Source of the DNA: Escherichia coli
Lineage (GTDB): Bacteria; Pseudomonadota; Gammaproteobacteria; Enterobacterales; Enterobacteriaceae
NCBI RefSeq assembly: GCF_003334255.1
Contig: NZ_QOWU01000119.1
Reading direction: 5' to 3' (one strand)
DNA: 3,540 bases
Numbering within the stretch: position 1 is the first letter of the stretch; the number at the start of each line of letters is the position of its first letter. The notes under the pieces are model-generated. The model saw only the letters and a program-made list of their open reading frames with translations. It searched no databases and was not told where the DNA came from. Made by a program: the position numbers and the translations under genes. Below are positions 1-3,540 of the stretch, one piece after another.

Positions 1-243
1 CATAAACCGGTGCAGTACTATCCCGGGAAACATCCGTGCGAAAAACCGGCAGAAATGCTGCAGCAGATAATCAGCGCGAGCAGTCGTCCGGGTGACCTGG
101 TTGCAGATTTCTTCATGGGGTCAGGTTCGACAGTCAAAGCAGCGATAGCGCTGGGACGTCGTGCAACTGGCGTTGAGCTGGAGACTGAGCGTTTTGAGCA
201 GACGGTCAGGGAAGTTCAGAATTTAGTCAGTCAGAACGGATGA
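1..243 (+). CDS. DNA methyltransferase (N6-adenine/N4-cytosine type), C-terminal fragment; 5' end lies upstream of the window
   Basis: Frame 1 is open from base 1 to the TGA at 241-243. The translation ...HPCEKPAEMLQQIISASSRPGDLVADFFMGSGSTVKAA... carries the HPxxKP motif followed by the FxGxG AdoMet-binding motif (D-x-F-M-G-S-G-S-T) typical of this methylase family. The ORF-track start at 10 is an internal GTG, not the true start. Confidence 0.8.
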   Translation, partial: HKPVQYYPGKHPCEKPAEMLQQIISASSRPGDLVADFFMGSGSTVKAAIALGRRATGVELETERFEQTVREVQNLVSQNG

Positions 244-283: not shown

Positions 284-359
284 GGCCCTTTAGCTCAGTG
301 GTGAGAGCGAGCGACTCATAATCGCCAGGTCGCTGGTTCAAATCCAGCAAGGGCCACCA
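284..359 (+). tRNA. ileZ: tRNA with anticodon CAU, tRNA-Ile2 (lysidine, AUA-decoding) type; 76 nt with encoded CCA
   Basis: Manual cloverleaf: acceptor GGCCCTT (284-290) pairs with AAGGGCC (349-355), discriminator A356, CCA 357-359. D-arm GCTC/GAGC; anticodon loop CTCATAA with CAT at 317-319; T-loop TTCAAAT. The sequence is close to E. coli ileX as I remember it. The symbol ileZ is by analogy with Stx-phage tRNAs and is tentative; from the anticodon alone an elongator tRNA-Met cannot be excluded. Confidence 0.8.
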
Positions 360-368
360 TATCACATA

Positions 369-445
369 CCGCCATTAGCTCATCGGGATAGAGCGCCAGC
401 CTTCGAAGCTGGCTGCGCGGGGTTCGAGTCCTCGATGGCGGTCCA
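369..445 (+). tRNA. tRNA-Arg, anticodon UCG; 77 nt with encoded CCA
   Basis: Manual cloverleaf: acceptor CCGCCAT (369-375) pairs with ATGGCGG (435-441), discriminator T442, CCA 443-445. U8 present; D-arm GCTC/GAGC with ATCGGGATA loop; anticodon stem CCAGC/GCTGG; loop CTTCGAA with TCG at 403-405; 5-nt variable loop; T-stem CGGGG/CCTCG (one G-U); T-loop TTCGAGT. Confidence 0.75.
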
Positions 446-501
446 TTATCTGCATTATGCGTTGTTGGTTCTGATGAGTGAATCATTGTCTTTTGAGCAA
501 C

Positions 502-523
502 AGGCTATCATATAAGATAGCCT
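502..523. repeat. Perfect 8-bp inverted repeat (hairpin) in the tRNA-to-ORF spacer
   Basis: AGGCTATC (502-509), 6-nt loop atataa, GATAGCCT (516-523). It is not followed by a T-run, so it is not a canonical terminator; it could be an RNA processing structure or a protein-binding site. Confidence 0.5.
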
Positions 524-723
524 CAGACTTCCTTGTTTATTCTCGCCGGATGCTTCGTAGATATTTGCAGGCATCTGTATGCAGGGGTATTATTGCGGCA
601 TATATCATCCGGAAAAATAAAAACTACATGCTGATCCGGAGATGATAGTTACAAGTCCTCCCGGATCCCGCATATTTACTATATTTTATAGATAATTGTT
701 CTTGTTAATATGGAGATGGATAA

Positions 724-1152
724 ATGTATTGCCGTGCTGTACCAGTTCTTGTTTTGATATTAGCCAGTCTGACAACTGGCTGCACAAAAGATGTATCGAC
801 AAATAATTATGATGCTTCTCTGTATCACTCAGATAAATTAATAAAGTCGCAAAATTTGAGCTCATCGGAACGTACCCCTGATGCCAGTGAAGAAATCAGG
901 CAGTATGCCATTCAGGTCAGGAAAGCCATAGAAGAACAGTTAAAGGATGCGAGTAAGTATTCAGGAAAAGAGTGTTCACTGAGAATGTATATGGCCCCGA
1001 ATGGTCTTCTGCTACAGGTTAAAAGAGAAAGCGGTGATCCCGATTTATGTCGTGAAGCGATGAATGCAGTAAAGAATGCTGATATACCATCACCACCGTC
1101 TTCAGGAGTATATAAAGCATTTAGAAATGGCGTGCTGGATTTTAAACTCTGA
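724..1152 (+). CDS. Predicted lipoprotein with a TolA C-terminal (domain III)-like domain; prophage cargo gene
   Basis: ATG 724 to TGA 1150-1152, 142 codons; GGAG at 712-715 is a plausible Shine-Dalgarno. N-terminus MYCRAVPVLVLILASLTTGC has a hydrophobic core and a lipobox-like TTGC with Cys20 and Thr at +2. A Ser/Thr/Asn/Asp-rich linker follows. The C-terminal 85 residues or so (YAIQVRKAIEEQLKDASKYSGKECSLRMYMAPNGLLLQVKRESGDPDLCREAMNAVKNADIPSPPSSGVYKAFRNGVLDFKL) align by eye with remembered E. coli TolA-III (...YAGQIKSAIESKFYDASSYAGKTCTLRIKLAPDGMLLDIKPEGGDPALCQAALAAAKLAKIPKPPSQAVYEVFKNAPLDFKP), including both Cys (codons 973-975 and 1048-1050), the GDP-x-LC motif and the terminal LDFK. GC is about 30-42% here versus more than 50% in the flanking genes. 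Confidence 0.8.
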   Translation: MYCRAVPVLVLILASLTTGCTKDVSTNNYDASLYHSDKLIKSQNLSSSERTPDASEEIRQYAIQVRKAIEEQLKDASKYSGKECSLRMYMAPNGLLLQVKRESGDPDLCREAMNAVKNADIPSPPSSGVYKAFRNGVLDFKL

Positions 1153-1155
1153 CAG

Positions 1156-1175
1156 GGGGAGAAGATTTTCTCCTG
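1156..1175 (+). terminator. Weak stem-loop immediately after the 724-1152 stop codon
   Basis: GGGGAGAA (1156-1163), loop GATT, TTCTCCT (1168-1174). The downstream tract tcctgatgattttgg is only moderately T-rich, so this is a possible weak intrinsic terminator or mRNA-stabilising hairpin. Confidence 0.3.
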
Positions 1176-1328
1176 TCCTGATGATTTTGGGGCGCTGGAA
1201 AGATATTGTGCTGTGAAGTGTTAAATTCCTCACAATTCAGTAAGTTGACAGTTGCCTGTCAGACTGGGCATTTGTTAAAAAAATTTCGCATGGTGAATCC
1301 CCCTGAGCGGAGGGGCGACTGGTGACGG

Positions 1329-1334
1329 TATAAT
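1329..1334 (+). promoter_or_regulatory. Consensus -10 hexamer TATAAT without a convincing -35
   Basis: TATAAT at 1329-1334. No good TTGACA-like hexamer lies 16-18 bp upstream (AGCGGA at 17 bp). The consensus TTGACA at 1245-1250 is too far away to pair with it and has no good -10 of its own. Confidence 0.25.
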
Positions 1335-1340
1335 CTCTGA

Positions 1341-1462
1341 TTATCAAAACGAGAATGACGCGGGTTTAGTGGCACCGGGCTGAACTCACCGGGAGGCACC
1401 CGGCACCATGTTCATGGTGATACAGAAATGCGGCTTCAGCCCCTCTCCGGAGGGGCTTTCTT
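1341..1462 (+). ncRNA. Hypothetical small structured RNA of about 120 nt, running from the candidate -10 to the intrinsic terminator
   Basis: There is no credible ORF in this interval. Consecutive hairpins: CCGGG-aggca-CCCGG (1389-1403), perfect palindrome CACCATG-tt-CATGGTG (1404-1419), and the terminator hairpin at 1438-1457 followed by a T-rich tract. Purely structural inference. Confidence 0.25.
1438..1462 (+). terminator. Rho-independent terminator, + strand
   Basis: AGCCCCTC (1438-1445), loop TCCG, GAGGGGCT (1450-1457): an 8-bp GC-rich stem followed by TTCTTAT. Confidence 0.6.
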
Positions 1463-1468
1463 ATGGAC

Positions 1469-1496
1469 AAAAAAGCCCGCGCTGGGAGACGCGGGC
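1469..1496 (-). terminator. Rho-independent terminator, - strand, back to back with the + strand terminator
   Basis: On the + strand: A6 (1469-1474), then GCCCGCG (1475-1481), 8-nt loop, CGCGGGC (1490-1496). Read on the - strand this is a 7-bp GC stem followed by TTTTTT. Confidence 0.5.
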
Positions 1497-1680
1497 GGCA
1501 AGGAATAAACAATAAAACGTGAAGTAATATTTCAGCTGGCGAATAATACCCCATAGTAATCACTCTGCGCAACTGCGCGGCCTTTTTCGTATTGCGGGCT
1601 GTAGTCTCCCTTCTGCCATTGTCCTGTAACTTCCGGACTTCAGCTCGCTCCTTATCTGACTCACAACATTATCCCGACCG

Positions 1681-1689: not shown

Positions 1690-3540
1690 ATGACATTTAA
1701 ACACTACGATGTGGTCAGGGCGGCGTCGCCGTCAGACCTTGCGGAGCGACTGACACAAAAACTGAAGGAGGGGTGGCAGCCATTTGGCAGCCCTGTGGCC
1801 ATCACGCCTTATACCCTGATGCAGGCCATTGCGGCGGAAGGTGATGTCACCACACCGGTGGTGGTGCAACCGTCGGGTGATGGTGGCGCTGTTATCAGCA
1901 CCACCAGCGAACCGGAATATTACTTTGTCATTGCGCTGGCCGGGCAGTCCAACTCGATGTCTTTTGGCGAGGGGCTGCCGCTGCCGGAGACATATGACCG
2001 TCCGGACCCGCGTATTAAACAGCTGGCGCGTCGCAGTACGGTGACGCCGGGTGGTGCCGCCTGTAAATATAACGACATCATTCCGGCAGACCACTGTCTG
2101 CATGATGTGCAGGATATGAGTAACCTGAATCATCCTCATGCAGACCTGAGTAAGGGACAGTACGGTTGTGTGGGGCATGCTCTGCATGTTGCCAAAAAGC
2201 TGCTGCCGTTTATGCCTGCGAATGCGGGTATCCTTCTTGTTCCATGTGGCCGTGGCGATTCGGGATTTACTGCGGGGGCCGAGGGGGCGTTTAACGAAGC
2301 GTCGGGAGCGACCGCAGGCTCGTCCCTGTGGGGGGCGGATAAACCGCTGTATCATGACCTGGTCAGCAGAACCCGTGCGGCCCTGAAGAAAAATCCGAAG
2401 AACGTGCTGTTATCAGTGATCTGGATGCAGGGAGAAAAAGATGTCAGTTCGGGGAGACATGCAGAACACAATGCGCTTTTCCTTGCCATGGTAAATCAGT
2501 TCCGTACGGAACTGGCAGATGTGGCAGAGCAGTGTACTGGCGGGACAACGGCCAGCGTCCCGTGGATTTGCGGTGATACCACGTACTACTGGAAGGAAAG
2601 GTATGCAGCGCCGTATGAGGCGGTTTACGGTGGGTATAAAGGCAAAGCTGCGCAGAATATTCACTTTGTGCCGTTGATGACGGATGAGCATGGTGTGAAT
2701 GTGCCGACAAACGAGCCGTCAGAAGATCCGGACATTATCCCGGCGGGATACTATGGCGCTGCGTCACGCACTGCCAGTAACTGGACGTCAGCCGATCGTA
2801 AAACGCACTTCAGTTCATGGGCGCGAAGAGGCCTTGTTTCAGACCGCCTGGCAGGTGCCATTTTGCAGTACGCCGGGCGGACATTATCGTTCCTTACCGG
2901 GCAGAGCGCACCGCAGTCGGGTGGTACAACTCCCGGTGATGATGTCAGTCCGGGGGTACCGGGTGTTGAGAAACCGCAGGATGGCGGTGTTGCTGGTACT
3001 GGTCATGATGAGGCCGTGAGCAGTACCAGGACGGTGGCTGAATATGATGCGAACAGTGGAAATGGTGTATGGACAGAGCAGCAGTGGGGGGCTGCCGGTG
3101 GCAAAGGCACTGTGACTGATGACGGTGGACGGAAAGCGCTACGACTGGAAAAACAGCCCGGTAAACTGACGTCCTGGAAAATGTTCCGTACTGTTGCAGT
3201 GGAGGAGGCAAAAAATCTTCTCAGCAAGGGGGGTGAAATTGCCGTACGGTTCAAAATTCCGGATGGAAGCGAACTGGTGAACGGACAGTTTGTCTTTGGT
3301 CTCTACTGGCCGGTGTCGCAGTGGGCGTCAGGCGCGGCAGCAAACAGTATGCTGGCATCATTCTTCCTTCAGACGGATGCATCAAATCTGAATCTTATGC
3401 ACCACAAGGGCACGTCGAATGCACAACTGGGTACATTTGGTGCGTTTGACCATAACTGGCATACGGTTGTTTTCCGCTTTGCGGGAAATAACAGCGAAAG
3501 AGTCGTTCCGGTGATTGATGGTACAGAGCAGACGGCGTTT
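1690..3540 (+). CDS. nanS-p: Prophage-type sialate (9-O-acetyl-N-acetylneuraminate) O-acetylesterase, NanS-p family; 5' partial, continues past the window end
   Basis: ATG at 1690 with a strong SD. I translated all 617 codons to the window end with no stop. The N-terminus MTFKHYDVVRAASPSDLAERLTQKLKEGWQPFG... matches the DUF1737-type N-terminal domain. It is followed by the SGNH/SASA esterase block YYFVIALAGQSNSMSFGEGLPLPETYDRPDPRIKQLAR with the catalytic GQSN serine motif, as in E. coli NanS (YjhS) and the Stx-phage paralogues. A Gly/Pro/Thr-rich linker (about 2890-3010) and a further C-terminal domain follow. Confidence 0.9.
   Translation, partial: MTFKHYDVVRAASPSDLAERLTQKLKEGWQPFGSPVAITPYTLMQAIAAEGDVTTPVVVQPSGDGGAVISTTSEPEYYFVIALAGQSNSMSFGEGLPLPETYDRPDPRIKQLARRSTVTPGGAACKYNDIIPADHCLHDVQDMSNLNHPHADLSKGQYGCVGHALHVAKKLLPFMPANAGILLVPCGRGDSGFTAGAEGAFNEASGATAGSSLWGADKPLYHDLVSRTRAALKKNPKNVLLSVIWMQGEKDVSSGRHAEHNALFLAMVNQFRTELADVAEQCTGGTTASVPWICGDTTYYWKERYAAPYEAVYGGYKGKAAQNIHFVPLMTDEHGVNVPTNEPSEDPDIIPAGYYGAASRTASNWTSADRKTHFSSWARRGLVSDRLAGAILQYAGRTLSFLTGQSAPQSGGTTPGDDVSPGVPGVEKPQDGGVAGTGHDEAVSSTRTVAEYDANSGNGVWTEQQWGAAGGKGTVTDDGGRKALRLEKQPGKLTSWKMFRTVAVEEAKNLLSKGGEIAVRFKIPDGSELVNGQFVFGLYWPVSQWASGAAANSMLASFFLQTDASNLNLMHHKGTSNAQLGTFGAFDHNWHTVVFRFAGNNSERVVPVIDGTEQTAF

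Follow-up and report, generated by a model that had tools for sequence, protein, structure and literature searches.

A predicted three-domain NanS-p-type sialate O-acetylesterase beside an exchangeable cargo slot in a non-Stx lambdoid prophage of Escherichia coli

Organization of the locus

The window, which is the whole stretch of 3,540 nucleotides that was analysed, opens within a phage DNA (adenine) methyltransferase gene, whose 3′ end (1..243, plus strand) matches the adenine-specific methyltransferases of NCBIfam (E 2e-12). The homologue of this gene carries the PGAP label 'DNA-methyltransferase' in a related locus (L001, 97.7% identical to the window) and also precedes the tRNAs in the Stx2a phage Stx2_95; the gene is part of the backbone 5′ of the tRNAs. 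Two plus-strand tRNA genes follow. The tRNA at 284..359, with anticodon CAT, was called Met by ARAGORN and is annotated in RefSeq as tRNA-Ile (AUA-reading, lysidine type), as in Stx phages, and the tRNA calls give tRNA-Arg with anticodon TCG at 369..445. Next to them on the same strand, at 459..505, are the degraded remains of the third tRNA-Arg (UCU) gene known from Stx phages, of which the 5′ half is represented; they were recognised by alignment with the third tRNA of VT2-Sakai, of Stx2_95 and of the second G1/2 prophage, all of which have it intact.

The order of genes in L001 is Q, methylase, tRNAs, tolA-III, esterase, DUF1378, DUF826, holin, lysozyme and terminase, and it is matched in Stx phages, where Q, methylase, tRNAs, cargo, esterase, DUF1378, DUF826 and holin succeed one another. 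The esterase gene belongs to the late interval between Q and the holin of a lambdoid prophage that lacks stx; Q and pR′ lie beyond the window, and L001 points to control of its genes as part of the late operon. Synteny among lambdoid phages places the esterase in the same position as in Stx phages. In the G1/2 prophage most structural genes are annotated as frameshifted; an assembly error is suspected to be the source of these frameshifts, and the prophage may be defective.

The cargo slot

Local blastn shows the homology to Stx phages breaking off at 466-500 and returning at 1216-1230; against VT2-Sakai and phi24B it ends at 500. These breakpoints, together with the GC content, delimit a cargo (moron) slot at 467..1229, which replaces the third tRNA and stxAB and is AT-rich, with 40.5% GC compared with about 55% in the flanks. 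Its left junction is located inside the relic of the third tRNA-Arg gene and its right junction at STnc100.

The slot contains a plus-strand gene (724..1152, PGAP label 'tolA') encoding a predicted lipoprotein of 142 amino acids with a signal peptide and a TTGC lipobox. A candidate -35/-10 pair that could give tolA-III its own promoter lies at 564-593. The protein corresponds to TolA domain III (Pfam TolA_C PF06519, 8e-23; PDB 1S62/1TOL/2X9A, E about 2e-25), and the E-values of the domain matches exclude chance both for this ORF and for the esterase ORF. No stx ORF is present in the window, and in place of stxA/stxB the slot between the tRNAs and nanS-p holds tolA-III. The preliminary description had placed a TolA-III lipoprotein next to the esterase instead of Shiga toxin, which is what the Pfam match, the lipobox and the search for stx bear out. 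Titles and abstracts of the literature on TolA with lambdoid phages, prophages or stx yielded no published description of this cargo lipoprotein. Elsewhere the slot contains stx2AB, TerB with DUF3927, tolA-III, or sRNA copies alone, according to a sample of 60 rows of 3473 records. The TolA-III lipoprotein is an independent moron, in the place that stxAB takes in Stx phages.

sRNA elements

The right-hand conserved flank of the slot is formed by an sRNA of the STnc100 family (1259..1468, plus strand; Rfam RF02076, 165.6 bits, E 1e-38); all related loci with such an sRNA have it in the same place, 5′ of the esterase. Convergent to it, a candidate sRNA is located on the minus strand at 1468..1556, in the position of AsxR/AgvB in Stx phages, with an intrinsic terminator at 1496-1475 followed by T6. 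This element is called a candidate only, because its fold barely beats those of shuffled sequences (z -1.8). The conserved 3′ region of AsxR/AgvB (RF02703/RF02702, ~42 nt) has no match in the window even at E<=1, whereas the neighbouring loci score 56-88 bits, and in alignment both the body and the terminator stem of the minus-strand element differ from those of AsxR/AgvB. The same allele of the element is present in Stx2_95 and PhiR5_1. Matches to OmrA-B (21.8 bits) and anti-hemB at 1438-1556 were below threshold and were rejected as chance. The sole difference between the window and the G1/2 locus concerns this region: the intergenic sRNA patch between cargo and esterase (1267-1679) has been swapped relative to the G1/2 locus.

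The esterase gene and its relatives

The nanS-p-type esterase ORF occupies 1690..3540 on the plus strand. A GGAGG Shine-Dalgarno sequence lies 6-10 nt 5′ of the ATG at 1690, and the reading frame is uninterrupted over 617 codons up to base 3540; the ORF is therefore truncated by the end of the window, and a further 45 codons lie past it. Over these 617 residues the protein is 100% identical to RefSeq WP_054518646.1 of E. coli G1/2, which is 662 amino acids long and is carried by G1/2 and ~15 further complete genomes. The identity is 97.9% to the esterase of phage PhiR5_1 (XSB41304.1) and 60-65% overall to the NanS-p proteins of Stx phages. Near-identical esterases (97.9-100% over 617 residues) are associated with a lambda-type head in PhiR5_1 and with an HK97-like head in the G1/2-type prophage, both unrelated to the T=9 head of phi24B; a search of the literature for the source of phages PhiR5/PhiR12 found nothing relevant.

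The dN/dS values are 0.11-0.33 per domain over the three domains of the protein, with synonymous sites near saturation in distant comparisons, and the gene is therefore under purifying selection. Taken alone, the SASA esterase domain gives 0.11-0.19 and the DUF1737 domain 0.05-0.33. A simple scan found no plus-strand promoter match belonging to the gene itself, and no N-terminal signal peptide was found in the protein. There is no NCBIfam model that names the protein, and PHROGs lists its family as 'unknown function'. The exact protein is already in RefSeq and the NanS-p family is published; judged by its sequence, the esterase is nothing unusual within the prophage NanS-p family and has been catalogued before.

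Domain architecture and catalytic residues

The limits of the Pfam domains were read from the full-length protein of 662 amino acids, which is 100% identical to the ORF in the window. The DUF1737 domain (Pfam PF08410, E 2e-15) covers residues 3-50 (1696..1839, plus strand, as for all features of the ORF), and it is followed by a NanS-like SGNH (SASA) esterase domain at residues 74-394 (1909..2871), defined by alignment with PDB 3PT5 (E 2e-114); the Pfam SASA match lies at residues 151-276 (E 7e-9). A linker rich in Gly, Pro, Ser and Thr was recognised by its composition at residues 395-447 (2872..3030), with 30% Gly+Pro, compared with 17% in the whole protein, and 12 Ser/Thr. The linker leads to a lectin-like jelly-roll C-terminal domain (DUF6645; 3031..3540), which matches PDB 6YP6, 'NanS-p' (E 4e-48), and Pfam PF20350 (2e-32). 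In the full-length protein the 6YP6 match spans residues 448-656 and Pfam DUF6645 residues 511-619; the window holds residues 448-617 of this domain, and the remainder was taken from the 100%-identical full-length protein. The PDB matches (E 1e-114 and 1e-48) settle the fold and family of the esterase.

The SGNH superfamily blocks I (Ser), II (Gly), III and V (His) are all present. Block I is GQSN (nt 1942-1953, residues 85-88, with Gln86 and Ser87), aligned with GQSN of NanS, and block V is RKTH (nt 2797-2808, residues 370-373, with His373), aligned with RSSH of NanS and, like NanS, containing no Asp. Block III, QGEKD (nt 2428-2442, residue 247), shows NanS-type variation. In block II, RGDSG (nt 2251-2265), the first Gly is retained and the second is replaced by Asp190; this form occurs in this allele lineage only, whereas NanS and every other NanS-p compared have RGGSA/RGGSAF. 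Gly followed by Asp and then Ser/Thr in block II is common in the SGNH family, for example in E. coli TAP. It has previously been shown that the catalytic residues of NanS are Ser19 and His301, with Gln18 in the oxyanion hole (PMC9063846), and Ser87, His373 and Gln86 of the window esterase align with these positions. The features on which the preliminary description had based its assignment, that is, a DUF1737-like N-terminus, a GQSN SGNH catalytic block and a Gly/Pro-rich linker to a C-terminal domain, are therefore all found, and the NanS-p architecture that it proposed holds for the three domains and for the catalytic residues (3PT5, 6YP6, Pfam).

Do the tRNAs, the cargo and the esterase travel together?

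The preliminary description had also proposed that tRNA, cargo and esterase form a modular cassette in which the cargo slot is exchangeable. The blastn breakpoints confirm that the slot is exchangeable; the notion of a single unit did not survive comparison with other loci. The order of tRNA, cargo and esterase does recur in Stx phages and in the window, as would be expected if the three moved jointly as one mobile cassette, but each element is also found without the others. In phage PhiR5_1 a near-identical esterase lies directly after Q, without tRNAs and without cargo. An esterase allele of ~98% identity occurs beside tRNAs and an empty slot that contains only STnc100 copies (L011, L013). 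A tolA-III paralog of 81% identity is present in ~770 genomes, and AH25, the single example of these that was opened, has the tRNAs and tolA-III without the esterase. The identical TolA-III protein stands in FWSEC0010 beside an esterase allele of 65% identity, which again speaks against a single cassette, and neither a transposase, an integrase nor terminal repeats flank the three-part block. Since tRNAs, cargo and esterase are each inherited independently of the others, they are not one cassette; joint movement as a mobile unit is highly improbable. The pairing of TolA-III with the esterase very probably arose instead by mosaic recombination at the conserved sequences on either side, with the tRNA block as the left flank and STnc100 as the right. 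A functional coupling between the two proteins was also considered, and it was rejected in view of the independent reassortment of cargo, tRNAs, sRNAs and esterase alleles.

Proposed function and alternative roles

The ORF at 1690-3540 very probably encodes a three-domain sialate O-acetylesterase of the NanS-p type, located in the late operon of a non-Stx lambdoid prophage and paired with TolA-III independently. Given that the simple scan assigned no separate promoter to the gene and that the protein lacks a signal peptide, we infer with its homologues as a guide that, once the prophage is induced, transcription would start at pR′ and Q-modified polymerase would pass the sRNA terminators into the gene, and that the enzyme would leave the cell at phage lysis. 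By analogy with the characterised enzymes, it would then act on sialic acids, whether free or bound to mucin, by stripping off 9-O-acetyl (and related) groups, after which sialidases and the Nan pathway could use them. By the same analogy, the targeting of the esterase to glycans would fall to the C-terminal domain, and DUF1737 may attach the enzyme to phage heads. It has been shown that nanS-p is induced together with stx by mitomycin C (PMC10462455) and that 933W NanS-p is active as an esterase on Neu5,9Ac2 and mucin O-acetyl sialic acids, as are all NanS-p alleles tested from EDL933 and O104:H4, which support growth on Neu5,9Ac2 (PMC8065619).

The altered block II raises the question of whether the enzyme is an inactive relic, kept by its position in the late operon, in which the change from Gly to Asp disables the oxyanion hole. 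The confinement of RGDSG, instead of RGGSA/RGGSAF, to this allele lineage would fit such a pseudo-enzyme, but the ORF is intact over 617/662 codons, the first Gly of block II is kept and the allele is present in a plaque-forming phage, PhiR5_1. The dN/dS values of the esterase domain and the conserved Ser, Gln and His led us to reject this reading, which has very little probability. It is also unlikely, if less so, that the natural target is a glycan of the bacterial surface, such as O-acetylated O-antigen or a capsule (K1 polysialic acid or another), so that the enzyme would modify or destroy receptors at adsorption or release, with the C-terminal domain setting specificity for the host glycan. 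The C-terminal domain is the most divergent part between alleles (34-49% identity) and its allele found here is rare (36/5426 genomes), both of which would favour a surface glycan, and a review raises a bacterial glycan as an open possibility (PMC8065619). Against this stands the cleavage of Neu5,9Ac2 and mucin O-acetyl groups by every NanS-p tested (PMC8065619), the nearest assayed allele compared being about 71% identical to the window esterase in the catalytic domain.

A more serious competitor, possible yet less probable than the sialate reading, is that the protein is primarily a virion component, in which DUF1737 plugs capsid hexons and the esterase and lectin domains serve the phage on mucus, in adherence or penetration, rather than mainly feeding the lysogen. 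A cryo-EM and proteomics preprint on phi24B (10.64898/2026.04.10.717836) detected gp84 in virions and describes DUF1737 as binding the capsid as a hexamer, only at the flat face-centred hexons of the T=9 podovirus head. In the window esterase DUF1737 is present, conserved as its dN/dS indicates and 66-69% identical to that of phi24B, and a Tyr lies in the loop matching the capsid-anchoring Tyr42 of phi24B (PYT vs GYG). On the other hand, this loop is five residues shorter than in phi24B, one preprint is the source of the capsid-decoration role, and the esterase, with DUF1737 98-100% identical, accompanies two other head modules, lambda Nu1/A/B/C/D/E in PhiR5_1 and the HK97-like module in G1/2, which have no tblastn similarity (E<=1e-3) to the terminase, portal and capsid candidates of phi24B. 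We suggest only tentatively, and consider it rather doubtful, that the DUF1737-esterase-lectin protein is a virion- or mucus-targeting module independent of head type, or that the lectin domain of this rare allele recognises a different glycan from that of the Stx-phage enzymes. If the esterase still decorates lambda or HK97-like capsids, DUF1737 would be a generic binder of HK97-fold hexon pores, and an esterase lineage on unrelated head modules provides a cheap test of how general the proposed capsid-decoration role is.

Comparison with known systems

For the specialist there is little new in the sialate O-acetylesterase itself, as NanS-p esterases, their carriage by non-Stx prophages (PMC10462455, PMC8065619) and the moron site have all been published; what is useful are the base-level boundaries of one cargo replacement. 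An exchangeable cargo position downstream of pR′ is likewise already in the literature: Tree et al. 2014 (PMC4104026) name this position in lambdoid prophages the 'moron insertion site' and describe a layout in which a moron CDS is followed first by convergent sRNAs and then by a conserved phage ORF. The counterpart in the window is tolA-III, then STnc100 on the plus strand with the terminator-bearing minus-strand element, then nanS-p; it differs from the published site in that the minus-strand element is neither AsxR nor AgvB and the moron is a TolA-III lipoprotein.

The closest relatives are the NanS-p proteins of Stx phages (933W L0105/z1466; vb_24B_21, which is gp84 of phi24B). They have in common with the window esterase the three-domain architecture, the position between the moron slot and the holin, and the catalytic motifs GQSN, QGE and RxxH, with identities of 66-96% in DUF1737 and about 71% in the esterase domain. 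In the C-terminal domain the identity to the crystallised domain of vb_24B_21 (PDB 6YP6) is 48-49%, and of the proposed sugar-binding aromatics, Tyr/Tyr/Tyr/Phe in vb_24B_21 and Phe/Tyr/Phe/Phe here, two of four are changed from Tyr to Phe. The linker (aa 395-447) is 22 residues longer than in the Stx-phage proteins, and, unlike them, the window esterase has RGDSG in block II and RKTH in block V, is not linked to stx and belongs to an allele carried by siphovirus-type prophages with other head modules.

Chromosomal NanS (YjhS) is a member of the nan regulon and is exported. Its SGNH type II core (PDB 3PT5) is homologous to that of the window esterase, with the Ser/His dyad and the oxyanion Gln aligned, whereas DUF1737 and the lectin-like C-terminal domain are absent from NanS according to published domain descriptions; the 3PT5 chain aligns solely to residues 74-394.

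Identity of the esterase

The ORF that begins at ATG 1690, with GGAGG 6-10 nt upstream, and runs without a stop codon to the window end at 3540 (617 codons) is confirmed by sequence and domain order as a member of the NanS-p family. A full-length protein from a locus with an esterase 100% identical across the window's 617 residues was submitted to Pfam, which assigned DUF1737 at 3-50 (2e-15), SASA (7e-9) and DUF6645 at 511-619 (2e-32). The match to residues 74-394 among known structures is E. coli NanS/YjhS (3PT5, E 2e-114), and that to residues 448-656 is the crystallised C-terminal domain 6YP6, deposited as "NanS-p" (E 4e-48); the linker between them (aa 395-447) is 30% Gly+Pro and contains 12 Ser/Thr. 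GQSN at aa 85-88 (nt 1942-1953) aligns onto GQSN of NanS, QGEKD onto QGEFD, and RKTH, which includes His373, onto RSSH. Catalysis in NanS relies on a Ser19/His301 dyad and the oxyanion hole residue Gln18 (PMC9063846), and these correspond to Ser87, His373 and Gln86 in the window esterase. All three domains have dN/dS of 0.05-0.33, indicating purifying selection. The architecture given in the preliminary description (DUF1737, a catalytic GQSN, a Gly/Pro-rich linker and a C-terminal domain) is present; the best matches were not unrelated SGNH hydrolases devoid of DUF1737, nor did the GQSN serine fail to align. The protein is already in RefSeq under the name SASA family carbohydrate esterase.

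Gene order and the cargo slot

The entire window matches chromosomal lambdoid prophages of E. coli, with at least 80% of it covered in only 20 of 5426 complete genomes and a top identity of 97.7%. A DNA methyltransferase gene, of which the window has the 3' end (1-243), is followed by a tRNA with anticodon CAT (284-359; Met by ARAGORN, Ile in the RefSeq annotation), tRNA-Arg TCG (369-445) and, at 459-505, what is left of the third tRNA gene that Stx phages carry, tRNA-Arg(UCU): its 5' half, in degraded form. The order in E. coli G1/2 is antiterminator Q, a small ORF, methyltransferase, tRNA-Ile, tRNA-Arg, "tolA", SASA esterase, DUF1378, DUF826, holin, lysozyme, Rz and terminase. The Stx2a phage Stx2_95 shares this gene order with the window locus, having the third tRNA and stx2AB in place of tolA-III, and the layouts of VT2-Sakai and phi24B are equivalent to that of Stx2_95. 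Local blastn homology to Stx phages stops at 466-500 and restarts at 1216-1230, and GC content is 40.5% in 467-1229 against about 55% in the flanks. Because 459-505 derives from the tRNA-Arg(UCU) gene, the left junction of the tolA-III replacement is placed inside that gene.

The cargo ORF (724-1152, 142 codons) encodes TolA domain III by Pfam (8e-23) and by match to 1S62 (E 2e-25), and its product begins with a signal peptide and a TTGC lipobox, as predicted for a lipoprotein. With stx absent from the window, the proposed pairing of the esterase with a TolA-III lipoprotein instead of Shiga toxin holds. A TolA-domain-III lipoprotein moron has apparently not been described in the searchable literature; a plausible role for it would be as a periplasmic TolA-III decoy for colicins that depend on Tol or for g3p of filamentous phages. 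tolA-III is found at 80% query coverage or more in 123 genomes, and an 81%-identical paralog in about 770 others. In AH25, the one paralog example opened, the paralog lies in a DLP12-like late region without an esterase, downstream of STnc100, and a second ORF with a TolA C-terminal domain stands behind it (L004, the AH25 locus, 4933-5907).

Between the cargo and esterase ORFs are 537 intergenic bases, which contain an STnc100-family sRNA (1259-1468, plus strand; Rfam RF02076, 165.6 bits) and a convergent sRNA-like candidate (1468-1556, minus strand) with a strong intrinsic terminator (1496-1475 plus T6). STnc100 is the conserved element bordering the slot on the right and, wherever nanS-p is present among the related loci fetched, lies directly upstream of it. 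The minus-strand element has no matching family in Rfam; it occupies the position of AsxR in VT2-Sakai and of AgvB in Stx1_8100, and is a third allele carried also by Stx2_95 and PhiR5_1. In the O113:H21 strain FWSEC0010 the sRNA module appears amplified, with five STnc100 copies between tolA-III and the esterase (L003, its locus, 5815-8766): one right behind tolA-III (5815-6027), then a methyltransferase fragment and an HTH gene, then four in tandem at 7787-8766.

Compared with the otherwise identical G1/2 locus, the window has 102 differences, all in 1267-1679 except a synonymous one at 1797. The patch 1259-1689 is 100% identical to another prophage of the same genome (at 1.79 Mb), as well as to 10 other genomes. 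Resident prophages thus appear to have undergone gene conversion in which the sRNA module alone was swapped. In the G1/2 prophage (NZ_CP060083.1, 2920000-2947000) the annotation marks most structural genes as frameshifted, which seems more likely to reflect indel errors of long-read assembly than real decay; that record is therefore no guide to whether the G1/2 prophage is intact.

Independent assortment of tRNAs, cargo and esterase

Across a spread sample of matching genomes the slot held four kinds of content: stx2AB, with or without IraM or IS1; TerB with DUF3927; tolA-III; or only one or two STnc100 copies. An empty slot followed by a 98%-identical esterase is found in the second prophage of G1/2 and in strain 2018-166, the isolated phage PhiR5_1 has a 97.9%-identical esterase directly after Q without tRNAs or cargo, and FWSEC0010 has an identical TolA-III protein beside a 65%-identical esterase allele. 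Because the tRNAs, cargo and esterase assort independently, their pairing here is, judging from the loci compared, the outcome of recombination at conserved flanks in the phage backbone and not a functional or mobile tRNA-cargo-esterase cassette. The modular-cassette proposal is therefore supported in part: the cargo slot is exchangeable and the order is shared with Stx phages, but the elements also occur apart and do not form a single unit. What stands restates the published moron-site picture (Tree et al., PMC4104026), and nanS-p in non-Stx prophages has been reported explicitly (PMC10462455; PMC8065619). In a 2026 preprint that surveyed chromosomal PasA sRNA genes, fewer than 3% adjoin stx, and the genes are flanked by sialic-acid esterase and holin-lysozyme genes.

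Expression and function

nanS-p is located in the prophage late region. Because a simple scan found no plus-strand promoter match upstream of the esterase gene, and the protein has no signal peptide, we infer that Q-modified polymerase from pR' would read through the STnc100 terminator (1438-1457) into the gene and that the protein would be released at lysis. This transcription model agrees with the induction of nanS-p together with stx by mitomycin-C (PMC10462455). By homology to assayed enzymes, the esterase would remove O-acetyl groups from Neu5,9Ac2 and from the sialic acids of mucin, and the lectin-like C-terminal domain probably targets it to glycans.

The main rival, or complement, to this function is that DUF1737 binds the capsid. 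A cryo-EM preprint on phi24B (10.64898/2026.04.10.717836) assigns it that role and finds the homologue gp84 present and processed on virions. However, esterases with a 98-100% identical DUF1737 accompany other head modules, lambda-type (Nu1/A/B/C/D/E) in PhiR5_1 and HK97-like in G1/2. Neither module has tblastn similarity to phi24B head genes, and the window DUF1737 has an anchoring loop shorter by five residues. The linkage of near-identical alleles to such head modules is in tension with a capsid-specific role for DUF1737.

Comparison with characterized NanS-p enzymes

The linker-plus-C-terminal segment of the window allele occurs in 36 of 5426 genomes, a collection rich in O157 and O104, and therefore the biochemically tested NanS-p alleles almost certainly exclude it. 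Block II reads RGDSG (2251-2265, aa 188-192) in the window, both G1/2 prophages, 2018-166 and PhiR5_1, whereas NanS and all other NanS-p compared have RGGSA/RGGSAF. With the first Gly kept and purifying selection acting on the allele, this change is not regarded as inactivating. Overall, the window esterase is 60-65% identical to Stx-phage NanS-p enzymes, with 66-96% in DUF1737, about 71% in the esterase domain and 48-49% in the C-terminal domain, where the proposed sugar-binding aromatics Y510, Y515, Y540 and F611 of vb_24B_21 (the phi24B NanS-p) correspond to F, Y, F and F.
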